Source: Escherichia coli (GTDB taxonomy: Bacteria > Pseudomonadota > Gammaproteobacteria > Enterobacterales > Enterobacteriaceae). Taken from it: a DNA stretch of 64,000 nt. A program made the translations under genes and the position numbers. This document shows, piece after piece, positions 37,303 to 42,207 of the stretch (position 1 is the first letter of the stretch; every line of letters begins with the position of its first letter). The notes below the pieces were generated by a model, which was given only the letters and a program-made list of their open reading frames with translations, did not search any database and had not been told where the DNA came from. The DNA lies in the NCBI RefSeq assembly GCF_002854065.1, contig NZ_CP024152.1. The stretch is one strand, 5' to 3'.

Positions 37303-37420
37303 TTCAGGCTCCTTACGGGGTGTCGGGGCGAAGCCCTGACCAGATGGTAATTGTAATAGCGTCGCGTGTGACGGTATTACAATTACACATCCTGTCCCGT
37401 TTTTCAGGCCATTATAGCCT
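37303..37420. other. Origin of transfer (oriT) region with inverted repeats
   Basis: Inverted repeat GTCGGGGC...GCCCTGAC (37331-37349) and AATTGTAATA-N16-TATTACAATT (37358-37393), directly upstream of nikA; a nick site is expected at the 3-prime side of the right arm. Confidence 0.6.
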
Positions 37421-38808: not shown

Positions 38809-38853
38809 ATTGTCTCCTCATCGTCACGACTGCCGGGTCAGCCAGGTCATTTC

Positions 38854-39180
38854 CCGGAGGAGCGAAGCTCCTTCTGCCGTCCGGGTCTTAGGGTATTTCC
38901 CCGCAGTGGACCTTTCCGACGGGGGACGCTCACCACGTCACGGGGCAGTTGTCCGGGGGCAGACGCAAAAGTTTTTGACGCCAGCGGCAAAAAGTTTTGT
39001 GGCTGGTACATCTCTCCCCTGGACGACTGAAACGGGATGTGGTCGTGTATGTACCCCCGGAAAGTCCGTCTGCGGAGAACAGGCCGCAGTGCGGCGGCAG
39101 ACAGGCAAGAGACAGCTGCGCCATCAGGCGCAGTGGCCTTACACACCGTAAGGTGTGCAGGGAGCGCCGCATCCGGCGCG
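38854..39180. promoter_or_regulatory. Structured repeat family 1, copy 1 (ssi/Frpo-like single-strand promoter candidate)
   Basis: About 330 bp, highly similar to 41711-42207 and 48054-48551; contains internal palindromes (GCGCCATCAGGCGC, ACACACCGT-AGGTGTG). Confidence 0.55.
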
Positions 39181-39281
39181 TCTGAAGAAAAACGACGGCA
39201 CAACAATGGCATGTGGTGGTCACTGGCACACCACTCCCGCACAGGTGAAAACAGAGAAAACCGCACGACATTTACAAACAA

Positions 39282-39378
39282 AAAAAGTGAAATTTCTTCA
39301 CTTTTTTACACTTATTTATCGCGCTGATTTGGCAATTGTGATGATAAAATAAAGTGAAGTTTTTTCACTTTTTCAAAG
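39282..39378. promoter_or_regulatory. Two palindromic operator-like sites flanking the putative promoter of the HTH gene
   Basis: AAAAAGTGAA-ATTTC-TTCACTTTTT (39282-39307) and AAAGTGAA-GTTTTT-TCACTTT (about 39350-39375), sharing the half-site AGTGAA. Confidence 0.45.
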
Positions 39379-39385
39379 GTGTTTT

Positions 39386-39637
39386 ATGACCGGCTGGGAA
39401 CTGCGAATCTGGCGAAAAAGCATGCTATGGTCACGCGAAAAAGCGGCCAGAGAATTTGGCGTGACGCAGAGAACATGGCACGCCTGGGAAAATGCGGAAC
39501 AGGTGGACGTCACCGTCTGGAGGACCACTCAGGCACTTTCAGTCCGTGACCTGCTGCCTCACATGCAGGGGATGCGCAAGGCAGATATCATCAGGCGTCT
39601 GGAAAATGAACTGGGGGAAACGGCAGGGAATGTGTGA
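39386..39637 (+). CDS. Helix-turn-helix (XRE-like) DNA-binding protein (83 aa)
   Basis: HTH signature SREKAAREFGVTQRTWHAWE; AGGTG RBS; palindromic sites upstream. Confidence 0.55.
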   Translation: MTGWELRIWRKSMLWSREKAAREFGVTQRTWHAWENAEQVDVTVWRTTQALSVRDLLPHMQGMRKADIIRRLENELGETAGNV

Positions 39638-39667
39638 GCGTGATTCACAGCCTGGCAGAATGTCAGG

Positions 39668-39838
39668 CTACTGCTCATCAGGAAACAGCTTTTTCAGTTC
39701 TTCACCGGAAAGTCCGGTCGCCTCCTGAATCCGTTCCGGCGTCCAGCCCATATCCCGCAGCCGGCAGGCTATTTCCCGCGCCACTTCAAGAGCACCTTTT
39801 TCAAAACCTTTCTGTATAAGACGTTCTGCAATCGTCAT
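39668..39838 (-). CDS. Standalone small protein homologous to the Rpn C-terminal tail (56 aa; RpnS-like)
   Basis: MTIAERLIQKGFEKGALEVAREIACRLRDMGWTPERIQEATGLSGEELKKLF aligns residue by residue with the last 57 aa of the upstream Rpn protein; separated from rpn by an intrinsic terminator. Confidence 0.5.
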   Translation of the reverse strand: MTIAERLIQKGFEKGALEVAREIACRLRDMGWTPERIQEATGLSGEELKKLFPDEQ

Positions 39839-39862
39839 GCTGTTTGCTCTGCTCCTGCTGAC

Positions 39863-39887
39863 AAAAAAGCCCGGCATTTTGCCGGGC
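39863..39887 (-). terminator. Rho-independent terminator after the rpn-like gene
   Basis: On the minus strand, GCCCGGC-AAAAT-GCCGGGC hairpin followed by T6. Confidence 0.55.
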
Positions 39888-39900
39888 TGTGAGGTTCTCA

Positions 39901-40860
39901 TCAGTGAATGATTTTCTTCAGTTCGTCATCGGAAAGTCCGGTAGCCTGCTTAATCTGCTCCGGCGTCATCCCCATTTTCTGAAGCTGGCACGCAATAGCC
40001 AGGGCTTTTTCAAGCGCACCTTCCATCCTGCCCTCCTGGCGACCTTTTTGCTCAAGACGTTCTGCGATAGTCATCAGTTTATCCTCATGCTGCGGCAGAC
40101 GCTCAGCCAGCGCCCGCATAAATTCCGGTGATACAGAGTCCCCTGCGTTAACGATGTAATGAATCAGAACACGCACCTGCTCGTCTGAAATTTCCACCAT
40201 GACCTGCGGGAGTTTGTCCAGCAGCTCCATCATGTCACGATGGCGGATATGCTTCATCAGCAGCGTCAGTGCGGCCATCCGGCGATGGTTCATGATTTCA
40301 TTGTCATCAACGACAGTGATATCAACCAGCGGAAACGGCTTTGTGTATATTTTAGCCGCAAGTGCCGGATTCTCAAAACAGTCCAGCCAGTTCATGCTGT
40401 ACGGGTACGGGCTGCGCTCACCATGATAGAACAGCACAGGAATCACCAGTGGCAACGTTTTGTGCTGCTCCAGATGTCTCTGCATCGCCGCCACACTGTA
40501 ACGTAACATGCGGAAAGGCATGTACAGATTTTCGGTGCTCTGGTGCTCGATGAGCGTATAAACATAGCCGTCTTCACCCCCGGTGGTTTTCACACTCCAG
40601 AGGATATCGCTGGCGTACTGATGCAGGTCCGGCTCAACAAAGGTGGCGGGTTCCAGCTTCAGCGTGGACAGGTCGCACAACTGCCGGTACTCCGCCGGAA
40701 GATGCAGTTCCAGAAAATCTCTGGCGACGTCGGGATTCGCCAGGAACGACCGGAACGCGGCATCATGCGGCGTGGGCGTCGTGGTGGTTTTCTTCTTACT
40801 CACGGTTCCTCCTGGTGAGATGTCTGAACGTATCCTGCCGCCTGCACAGGCAGACGGCAA
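39901..40860 (-). CDS. Rpn-family (YhgA-like, PD-(D/E)xK) recombination-promoting nuclease (319 aa)
   Basis: Rpn/YhgA-type N-terminal nuclease-domain signature and the characteristic C-terminal tail; internal in-frame ATG at 40074 with a GAGGA SD could produce the C-terminal small protein. Confidence 0.6.
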   Translation of the reverse strand: MPSACAGGRIRSDISPGGTVSKKKTTTTPTPHDAAFRSFLANPDVARDFLELHLPAEYRQLCDLSTLKLEPATFVEPDLHQYASDILWSVKTTGGEDGYVYTLIEHQSTENLYMPFRMLRYSVAAMQRHLEQHKTLPLVIPVLFYHGERSPYPYSMNWLDCFENPALAAKIYTKPFPLVDITVVDDNEIMNHRRMAALTLLMKHIRHRDMMELLDKLPQVMVEISDEQVRVLIHYIVNAGDSVSPEFMRALAERLPQHEDKLMTIAERLEQKGRQEGRMEGALEKALAIACQLQKMGMTPEQIKQATGLSDDELKKIIH

Positions 40861-40867
40861 GGGTTAA

Positions 40868-41134
40868 TCAGTGGCAGACCCGCTCAATTTCAAGCGCGCG
40901 GAGCAGGTGGCCCCATTCGCTGACTTTCATAGCGGGGATACGCACCCGCTTCTGCTCACTGCAGCGTCTGGCGATATGGCCGCTCATCGCCAGGACGTCC
41001 GGGTTAATCTCATCCTGTGCCAGCTCCTGACGTCTGAAGCGGGTATGGCGGTGCAGGGGTTTATTCTCCCGCAGGCACTCTTCACGCAGACGCTTTACAT
41101 ACTCGGCGGTTGCGAAGATAATTGATGGTCTCAC
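40868..41134 (-). CDS. Hypothetical leading-region protein (88 aa)
   Basis: ORF downstream of structured repeat copy 2. Confidence 0.4.
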   Translation of the reverse strand: MRPSIIFATAEYVKRLREECLRENKPLHRHTRFRRQELAQDEINPDVLAMSGHIARRCSEQKRVRIPAMKVSEWGHLLRALEIERVCH

Positions 41135-41225: not shown

Positions 41226-41660
41226 TCATTTCGGACAGCGACGCAGTGCCAGCGCGAGCGCTTTCATCTTCCAGCCTTCCGGCGTGCGGTACATCACCTT
41301 CCAGTAGCCGTCGATGAACACATAATGGAAGCGCACCTCTTCAGTGCTTTCAGTGGCAATAGCCTCCATGAAAGAACGGTACTCACGCGCCTCACTGTCC
41401 ATCCGGAAACCACTGTCACGTCCGTAATAAGCCGTCACACCGTCCACCGGGTTCTGAAGCGTATGCCCGGCGGGTTTGTCGCAACGGGGACCGAGGCAAC
41501 GGATATCACCGTGTTCAACCAGGGCTTCGGCCTGCTGACCGGTGGCATAGTGGGTATGCAGGATGCGACCGTTCCAGGTCGGCTCACCGTGCAGGTGGCA
41601 GTAAACGGTACGGAACACCCCGTCGCGGCAAAAAACGGAAATCGTGCTGCTGACTGTCAT
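41226..41660 (-). CDS. Hypothetical leading-region protein (144 aa)
   Basis: First ORF downstream of structured repeat copy 2; Cys/His-containing N-terminus. Confidence 0.45.
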   Translation of the reverse strand: MTVSSTISVFCRDGVFRTVYCHLHGEPTWNGRILHTHYATGQQAEALVEHGDIRCLGPRCDKPAGHTLQNPVDGVTAYYGRDSGFRMDSEAREYRSFMEAIATESTEEVRFHYVFIDGYWKVMYRTPEGWKMKALALALRRCPK

Positions 41661-41710
41661 GAAAACGTCTCCTTCTGCTGAATCAGGTCGCCGGGCCGAC
41701 CGGTTGCTCC

Positions 41711-42207
41711 CCGGAGGGGCGAAAGCCCCTTCTGCCGTCCACTTCTTCGGGGTTTCTCCCCGCAGTGGACCTTTCCGATGGGGCGTCCGTCACCACGTCA
41801 CGGGGCAGCTGTCCGGGGGCGGACGCAAAATTTTTTGCCGGGTTTATGGCTAAAAATTTTGTGGACGGTATATCTTCCCCTGGACTGCTGAAACGGGATG
41901 TGGTTACTCCAGCCCCCGGAAAGTCCACAGCGGGAAACAGGCCGCAGGGGTGGCGGCGGAAGGGTTGACTGCGCCATCAGGCGCAGTGGCCTTACACACC
42001 GTCAGGTGTGCAGGGAGCGCCGTTTCCGGCGCGACAGGGGCGGCGCGACCGGAACGGTCGCTGCAAGCCTGGTTTTTCAGACATCGGACCGTAGCGGCAG
42101 CCCGAAACCGCGCCAGCGGGTTCGGCGGAGACTGGCGGGTGCGCCAGCAGCTGCCTGTCGGAGTCGGGCCTGACGACCGGATGCCGCCAGGCAGCCGGGA
42201 GCCGAAG
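41711..42207. promoter_or_regulatory. Structured repeat family 1, copy 2 (ssi/Frpo-like)
   Basis: About 500 bp, near-identical over most of its length to 48054-48551 and over about 330 bp to 38854-39180. Confidence 0.6.

Follow-up and report, generated by a model that had tools for sequence, protein, structure and literature searches.

The 64,000-nucleotide stretch of Escherichia coli DNA analyzed here (contig NZ_CP024152.1, assembly GCF_002854065.1; hereafter the window) contains, at positions 39,282 to 40,860, a gene for an Rpn/YhgA-type nuclease (rpnL), an intragenic gene for the tail of that nuclease (rpnS), a standalone paralogue of the tail (hereafter the solo) and a convergent helix-turn-helix (HTH) gene. 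We interpret the rpn locus as the I-complex plasmid member of the RpnL/RpnS toxin-antitoxin (TA) and abortive phage-defence family, with a specificity-shifted solo and early expression, and assign this interpretation a probability of roughly 0.8. The sequence gives good support for identifying it as an Rpn toxin gene with an antitoxin encoded inside it. The evidence below concerns sequence anatomy, conservation, selection, repeat behaviour and genomic context.

An Rpn nuclease with conserved catalytic residues

The rpnL gene (39901-40803, minus strand) encodes a PD-(D/E)xK nuclease of 300 residues, the predicted toxin, and starts with a GTG codon preceded by an AGGAGG Shine-Dalgarno (SD) sequence. 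A first-pass annotation, made from the sequence alone, had proposed a protein of 319 residues from an open reading frame (ORF) at 39901-40860. This frame does exist on the minus strand, but its start at TTG 40860 is ruled out by the RefSeq annotation, which places the start at GTG 40803, and by conservation of this GTG and its SD sequence across two upstream contexts, as both are kept in plasmids that carry different, unrelated sequence upstream of rpn.

The Rpn/YhgA assignment itself held in profile searches. The protein matches Pfam family PF04754 (Transposase_31) over residues 11-207 (E = 2e-78) and TIGR01784 with 184.7 bits, well over the cutoff of 52.1. Its score against the RpnA equivalog NF007361 (324.5 bits, E = 7e-97) is under the curated cutoff of 583 and, therefore, RpnL is an Rpn paralogue rather than RpnA. 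Mutation of D11, D63, E82, Q84 or R94 abolishes or alters the activity of RpnA (Kingston 2017). These residues align to D14, D66, E86, Q88 and R98 of RpnL, so that all five are present and the absence of catalytic residues, which had been named as a possible objection to the nuclease assignment, does not apply. On the basis of family membership, RpnL would be a DNA endonuclease that is toxic on its own.

One motif departs from RpnA. The PDDEI sequence, which is identical in the K-12 Rpn paralogues and is not described as a requirement for activity (Kingston 2017), reads DDNEI in the I-complex Rpn (residues 166-170, window 40294-40308), with N168 at the position of RpnA D165. Because an asparagine is found where the D165A substitution makes RpnA hyperactive (42-fold more toxic; Kingston 2017), the I-complex allele may, by analogy, have a naturally higher activity.

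An intragenic start for the C-terminal tail

RpnL proteins are toxic nucleases that are specifically neutralised by RpnS proteins, which are produced from internal starts (Zhong et al. 2023 PNAS). In rpnL, an in-frame ATG (M244, 40072-40074) is located 7 nt downstream of a GAGGA SD sequence (40082-40086, minus strand). This arrangement, recognized in the first-pass annotation, would yield a tail-only protein of 57 residues (rpnS, 39901-40074, minus strand), the predicted cognate antitoxin. The internal ATG and GAGGA are kept in all 14 plasmid loci compared, including ∼86% identical alleles with altered neighbouring codons. The start is also supported by RpnA, where M244 is an experimentally validated internal start (Zhong et al. 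2023); the RpnA-S crystal chain (PDB 7TH0, 49 residues) starts at a methionine aligned with M244 of the window protein.

A sigma-70-like promoter (TTGAGA-16-TAAAAT, 40349-40376, minus strand) is present inside rpn, ∼280 nt upstream of the M244 start. It matches 10 of 12 consensus positions and is conserved across loci, which is weak evidence for a site that lies in coding sequence. The site fits the internal transcription starts reported for E. coli rpn genes (Zhong et al. 2023) and is a candidate promoter for a short rpnS transcript.

We propose that the M244 start, probably served by the internal promoter, gives rise to a three-helix protein of 57 residues identical to the nuclease's own C-terminal domain. 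This RpnS would bind the C-terminal domain of the nuclease via its long first helix, keeping the nuclease inactive, and would thus be the working antitoxin of the module. A trigger, which is phage infection in the published cases, would release the nuclease from RpnS. On this model we infer toxicity, neutralisation and defence for the plasmid module.

A standalone copy of the tail behind a terminator

Downstream of rpn, an intrinsic terminator (39862-39888, minus strand), formed at 39868-39888 by the hairpin AGCCCGGC-AAAA-GCCGGGCT and a run of six T, separates the nuclease gene from the solo. The hairpin is kept in 14 of 14 plasmid loci, with a T-run of 4-7. The solo (39668-39838, minus strand) is a standalone rpnS paralogue of the RpnSs type with 56 residues, whose AGGAG sequence (39852-39856) lies 13 nt upstream of its ATG. 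Both the terminator and a separate small gene aligning with the tail had been read from the sequence in the first-pass annotation, and our comparison agrees: once the repeat units described below are removed, 33 of 49 residues (67%) are identical between the solo and the adjacent tail. At the DNA level, the two form a direct repeat (76–82% identical) whose spacing changes from 224 to 236 nt through a 12-nt indel. The duplication is old, as the two genes have a nucleotide identity of 74% with repeats removed and a pS of 0.48.

The solo matches the C-terminal 49 positions of TIGR01784 (E = 3e-7), and the precomputed family on record for it is PF27070. A scan of the solo against a Pfam release lacking PF27070 did not match DUF4351 (PF14261) and returned only noise-level HTH-like matches. 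The AlphaFold2 model of the solo (pLDDT 78) is helical, with four DSSP segments and a first helix that is split at residues 10–12. Its best match in the PDB is RpnA-S (7TH0; probability 0.85, TM 0.70), with an E-value of 0.69 that is not significant given the small size of the protein.

On sequence evidence, the solo is a maintained gene under purifying selection and not a decaying remnant, given its pN/pS of 0.25 (0.19 for the tail), its intact ORF and its near-universal retention. The ORF is intact in essentially all of ∼90 loci, where every length change is a multiple of 12 nt, and the gene is found in ∼2030 of ∼2037 I-complex plasmids in PLSDB, always free-standing. The CAGCAGGAGCAGAGCAAACAGCATG context and the MTIAERL start are invariant among the 14 plasmid loci. 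A longer form of 77 residues in some RefSeq records (ATG 39901, overlapping the rpn stop) was rejected, since its frame is not conserved across plasmids: it is broken by variation in the T-run (4-7) and in the stop context (TGATGAG or TGAGTAA).

The solo probably arose by duplication or unequal crossover at the conserved 5' segment encoding MTIAERL, and its own ATG would serve as its translation start. How strongly it is expressed is uncertain because a strong terminator precedes it and its SD sequence is 13 nt from the ATG. A second hairpin (GCCTGAC-ATTCT-GCCAGGC, 39640-39666) is located between the convergent stops of the solo and the HTH gene; it has a T-run on neither strand and may be a weak bidirectional terminator.

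Independent variation of repeat units

The specificity of RpnS for RpnL is set by the number of 4-residue repeats in helix 1, a hypervariable stretch 8–20 residues after the methionine, and one extra unit in RpnC-S abolishes neutralisation (Zhong et al. 2023). The tail in the window contains two such 12-nt units (RQEG RMEG; 40018-40041, minus strand), starting at residue 12, while the solo contains a single unit (FEKG; 39794-39805, minus strand). We surveyed 14 plasmid loci and 94 metagenome contigs retrieved by the conserved solo SD context.

The tail count (n) ranges from 0 to 6 among 75 haplotypes, with units of the RQEG/RMEG or IQQG type (n = 2 in the window), and the solo count (m) ranges from 0 to 5, with units of the FxxG type (m = 1 in the window). 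The two counts vary independently, also on backbones that are identical in single-nucleotide polymorphisms (SNPs), with up to four combinations per backbone. The tail and solo counts of ∼95% of haplotypes are unequal; equal counts are found at roughly a third of the frequency expected by chance. Matched counts were found in 3 of 72 regular haplotypes and one irregular haplotype, compared to 10.8±2.9 expected (permutation, P = 0.0025), and in 3.3 compared to 9.0±2.6 expected when one haplotype was drawn per backbone; the Spearman correlation of the two counts is −0.30. The first 14 plasmids had suggested that n and m always differ. This rule was dropped when matched counts appeared among the 94 metagenome loci, and under-representation, not exclusion, of matched counts is suggested by the data.

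The unit residues differ as well, being R/Q/M/E in the tail and F/D/K in the solo. Furthermore, the neighbouring tail switches among three types (ALEK, ALQK, RMEEK) while the solo stays conserved; thus, the solo does not co-evolve with the tail. Since repeat number sets pairing in this family and the two counts usually differ, the solo is most likely a specificity-shifted RpnS and not a simple back-up antitoxin for the neighbouring nuclease.

Rearranged loci were found as well. Three-member arrays are present in four metagenome contigs (L027, L028, L062 and L085). Their rpn has a tail of the IQQG type, and downstream of it come a free-standing RQEG-type copy (the tail type of the window) and then the FxxG solo, both of these free-standing genes having the same terminator-SD unit ahead of them, ∼235 nt apart. 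In Shigella sonnei (L110, CWUX01000070.1, 1104-3204), an rpn body is fused to a solo-type tail (P0189), and the fusion gene is broken into pieces of 223 and 40 residues. The arrays and this fusion appear to be the reciprocal products expected of unequal crossover at the 33-nt MTIAERL segment, which is 82% identical between the copies.

In other organisms, two proteins (P0150, 221 residues; P0164, 296 residues) contain 2–3 tandem RpnS-like units, each with G-rich 4-residue repeats, and resemble fused arrays of antitoxin domains without an attached nuclease. Long proteins that seemed to contain repeated RpnS-like stretches (P0137 and similar) were discarded, as they consist of irrelevant low-complexity repeats of the AGFSAKDLKD type.

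Plasmid setting and predicted early expression

The region has 100% identity to E. coli plasmids of the IncI type and matches ∼2037 PLSDB records, nearly all of them conjugative MOBP/MPF_I plasmids of the I complex (IncI1, I-gamma, K, B/O, Z). The module is present in 1378 of 5426 complete E. coli genomes, at 1465 plasmid and 63 chromosomal places. In annotated relatives, the gene order is trbABC, nikB, nikA, oriT, a small ORF, a DUF4942 gene, the HTH gene, a small hypothetical gene, Rpn, two hypothetical genes, ardA, psiA, psiB, parB and ssb. The R64-type oriT inverted repeat is located at 37347-37386. All leading-region genes are on the minus strand, so that transcription runs toward oriT with the transferred (plus) strand as template. 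The position of oriT and this gene orientation bear out the earlier guess that the locus belongs to a plasmid leading region.

A class-1 repeat of the ssi/Frpo type (∼330 nt) is present exactly three times in the window (anchor positions near 39116, 41969 and 48314). These copies correspond to the class-1 single-strand promoters ssi1-3 of IncI1 plasmids. Two copies (38845-39205 and 41700-42060) were folded as single-stranded DNA (ssDNA) and form long hairpins (z about −8). The middle copy (41700-42060, plus strand, that is, the transferred strand; −113.7 kcal/mol, z −8.1) lies between ardA and orf144, directly upstream of orf144, orf88 and rpn. Of the other two copies, the one nearest oriT is upstream of the DUF4942 gene and the third is upstream of ssb. 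A 65-residue "hypothetical protein" (39155-39352, plus strand) in many RefSeq records spans an ssi hairpin and the first of two palindromes described below, and is probably not a gene.

In an early-conjugation RNA-seq study of pESBL-EA11 (PMC12672017), six operons are induced, one of them behind each of ssi1-3. The layout of pESBL-EA11 is that of the window. Because the module belongs to a leading-region operon behind an ssi/Frpo-type single-strand promoter, it would probably be transcribed transiently when the plasmid enters a new cell; by analogy with pESBL-EA11, we infer early induction of rpn on conjugative entry.

Strength of the interpretation and alternative roles of the solo

Several observations weigh against this interpretation. 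Toxicity, neutralisation and defence are extrapolated from RpnA, RpnB, RpnC and RpnP2, and the PADLOC 2023 models match neither the Rpn nor the solo. The early induction proposed above is extrapolated from the operon-level description of pESBL-EA11. The haplotypes in which matched counts are rare are not phylogenetically independent, and four of the six possible matched combinations do occur, namely (0,0), (1,1), (2,2) and (3,3). The solo is located behind a strong terminator, with its SD sequence 13 nt from the ATG and no room for a promoter of its own after the terminator. Finally, a plain antitoxin gene is normally intolerant of insertions, yet transposon-insertion sequencing (TnSeq) of pESBL classified Hp19 (rpn), Hp20 (solo) and Hp21 (HTH) each as "non-essential", with a probability of 1.00, for both maintenance and transfer. 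This dispensability argues against the solo as a required antitoxin. It is compatible with a working internal RpnS: an insertion in the tail inactivates toxin and antitoxin at once, and the classification is a per-gene average.

The first-pass annotation viewed the solo as a redundant second antitoxin for the adjacent RpnL, supplying extra or separately regulated neutralising capacity. This would explain why the solo is always found next to rpn under purifying selection, and why the adjacent tail is its closest known relative (67% identity): no full-length Rpn with a tail closer to the solo was found among 1.84 billion representatives or in PLSDB, by a word-indexed search that is not exhaustive and failed to list even the full-length I-complex Rpn proteins. 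A few plasmids do have equal counts in tail and solo, and Koonin's commentary suggests that a second copy may allow toxin and antitoxin to be regulated separately. However, the usual mismatch in repeat number is difficult to reconcile with redundancy in a family where a single extra repeat in RpnC abolishes neutralisation (Zhong et al. 2023), as are the different unit residues, the constancy of the solo while the tail changes type, its dispensability in pESBL, and its position behind a strong terminator with a poorly spaced SD sequence. On the repeat evidence, a simple doubling of antitoxin capacity is probably wrong; the redundant-antitoxin explanation as a whole retains some weight, although we consider it unlikely.

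Another possibility, which we regard as speculative, is that solos are kept out of register with the neighbouring tail, either as immunity, produced on entry, against the RpnL of rival I-complex plasmids or as donor cassettes with which the nuclease switches its tail, and with it its antitoxin specificity, by recombination at the MTIAERL segment. In that case, tail switching would be caught in progress in the three-member arrays and in the body-plus-solo fusion.

Alternatively, the solos may be orphan immunity or anti-defence proteins that are delivered early in conjugation against the RpnL of rival I-complex plasmids or of the recipient, in which case free-standing copies would form an immunity collection. 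No RpnL with an FxxG tail is known to us as a target, however, on any plasmid or in the representative library: a search for solo-type tails, again not exhaustive, returned only small proteins and the one fusion in the disrupted Shigella gene. The solo is only 37–47% identical to the K-12 RpnA and RpnE tails, and the terminator upstream of it should limit early expression. These points make the orphan role improbable, even though leading regions are enriched in orphan antitoxins (Samuel et al. 2024) and the arrays do pair an IQQG-type rpn with a free-standing tail of the RQEG type, the type at work in other I-complex plasmids, that of the window included.

A further reading, allowed for when the gene was first noticed, takes the solo for a by-product of recombination, the functionless relic of a second rpn gene that was deleted or replaced; this is very improbable. 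Products of unequal crossover exist, the solo is dispensable in TnSeq, and its SD spacing and upstream terminator look unfavourable for expression. Against this, its pN/pS is similar to that of the tail, its ORF is intact across ∼90 loci with length changes confined to in-frame 12-nt units, its start and SD context are conserved, and it is kept in nearly all I-complex plasmids; moreover, its K-12 counterpart YpaA is translated (Zhong et al. 2023).

The old annotation makes Rpn a transposase or a recombination-promoting enzyme by which plasmid DNA is mobilised or rearranged, and the small ORFs incidental. It is hardly tenable: overexpressed RpnA promotes RecA-independent recombination (Kingston 2017) and the locus is recombinationally dynamic, but the gene has no terminal inverted repeats or target duplications, occupies a single fixed position in the I-complex backbone, and a transposase function has been argued against (Zhong et al. 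2023).

The HTH gene and other neighbours

The HTH gene (39386-39637, plus strand) is convergent with the solo and encodes an XRE-type protein of 83 residues, whose match to the family is weak (Pfam HTH_31, E = 1e-4; phrog_6962, function unknown, E = 2e-13). As first reported from the sequence, it is preceded by two palindromes (AAGTGAA-N5-TTCACTT; 39285-39303 and 39352-39370), which are 67 bp apart and are the only two matches to this pattern in 64 kb, where 0.27 would be expected by chance. The palindromes are likely operators of the HTH gene, and autoregulation is the simplest reading because they bracket the gene's own upstream region. The second palindrome shares sequence with a promoter-like site (GTGAAA-16-TATCAT, 39341-39368, minus strand) that faces away from the HTH gene, in the direction of the first ssi and the DUF4942 gene. 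This could be a divergent double-strand promoter under the control of the HTH protein.

The first-pass annotation had listed the HTH gene next to the nuclease. A link to rpn is not supported: the palindrome was not found on the rpn side in a search of the 64-kb window, and a truncated HTH gene accompanies rpn and the solo in a few plasmids. The HTH gene is found beside the solo in 87 of 94 loci, and is thus a conserved neighbour without a shown tie to rpn. As it is on the transferred strand, it cannot be transcribed until the complementary strand is made.

Two co-oriented genes precede rpn. The nearer, orf88 (40868-41134, minus strand), is annotated in all related plasmids and had no family match in the profile searches run. 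The other, orf144 (41226-41660, minus strand), is the first gene after the middle ssi element; it had no match in the Pfam search and matches two phage families of unknown function, phrog_1987 (E = 1e-20) and phrog_23089 (E = 4e-19). Some I-complex plasmids, including pESBL, have an additional ORF of 129 residues between orf88 and rpn, overlapping the rpn start by 4 nt (2661-3050 in L012; 66517-66906 in pESBL, NC_018659.1), which is absent from the window. An Rfam scan gave no match between 36.5 and 49 kb of the window.

Significance and comparison with known systems

The module is carried by I-complex resistance plasmids in about a quarter of complete E. coli genomes, where its products have hitherto been treated as hypothetical proteins. 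Current understanding is not overturned; the locus is largely an ordinary plasmid version of the published Rpn system. What is new is the single-strand-promoter context, the independent and mostly mismatched variation in repeat number, and the multi-copy arrays. Once the module is recognised as RpnLS, a defence-type nuclease is seen to belong to an operon that is probably switched on at plasmid entry. This recognition also bears on pESBL, for which the group behind the TnSeq study later reported residual stability of a par pnd oriT triple mutant, while annotation yielded no further TA candidate; the Rpn module, whose genes were the hypothetical Hp19 and Hp20 there, is an obvious candidate for the extra TA activity suspected on this plasmid. 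In addition, repeat counts of 0–6 and 0–5, which change on identical backbones, constitute a large natural data set on repeat number, RpnS-RpnL specificity and the role of second copies.

RpnA (YhgA) and RpnA-S (PDB 7TH0) share with the window proteins the domain order, the catalytic residues and an internal start at residue 244. They differ in that RpnA-S has no 4-residue repeat units, RpnA has no downstream copy and reads PDDEI in place of DDNEI, and the window nuclease scores under the RpnA equivalog cutoff, as expected of a paralogue.

The second copy had been regarded as unusual when the locus was first annotated. However, separate downstream rpnS genes have been described both on chromosomes (rpnE-ypaA, rpnC) and on plasmids (Zhong et al. 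2023). The second copy is thus a known feature of the Rpn family, and the architecture of a nuclease with an intragenic inhibitor is likewise already published. The K-12 rpnE-ypaA locus is a close parallel, with an internal MTIAERL start in rpn and, downstream, a duplicate of the tail encoded by a small gene of its own. YpaA has one 4-residue unit (KLEG) more than the RpnE tail, just as the counts of solo and tail differ here, and in both loci the second copy originated from the adjacent rpn, not from a different Rpn gene. The ypaA gene begins 12 nt after the stop codon behind a strong AAGGAG SD sequence, without a terminator, whereas 62 nt, including a strong terminator, separate the solo from rpn, and the SD sequence of the solo is distant. 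In addition, RpnE is annotated as inactive, while the window nuclease keeps all catalytic residues, and the window locus resides on a plasmid, in the leading region.

The plasmid-borne RpnP2-LS of E. coli ECOR13 is a functional model for the window locus, likened to it by description rather than by sequence comparison: RpnP2 is an RpnL that is toxic without its internal RpnS, and it defends against T-even phages (Zhong et al. 2023). Neither a standalone copy nor a leading-region context is described for it in the available part of that report.

Leading-region TA systems and orphan antitoxins (Samuel et al. 2024 Nature) resemble the present locus in that the region entering first contains both a TA-type module and an antitoxin-like gene that stands free, in an orientation suited to transcription from the transferred strand. 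The main text of that study does not mention Rpn. The locus described here differs from those systems in that its "orphan" is a paralogue of the resident module's own antitoxin.

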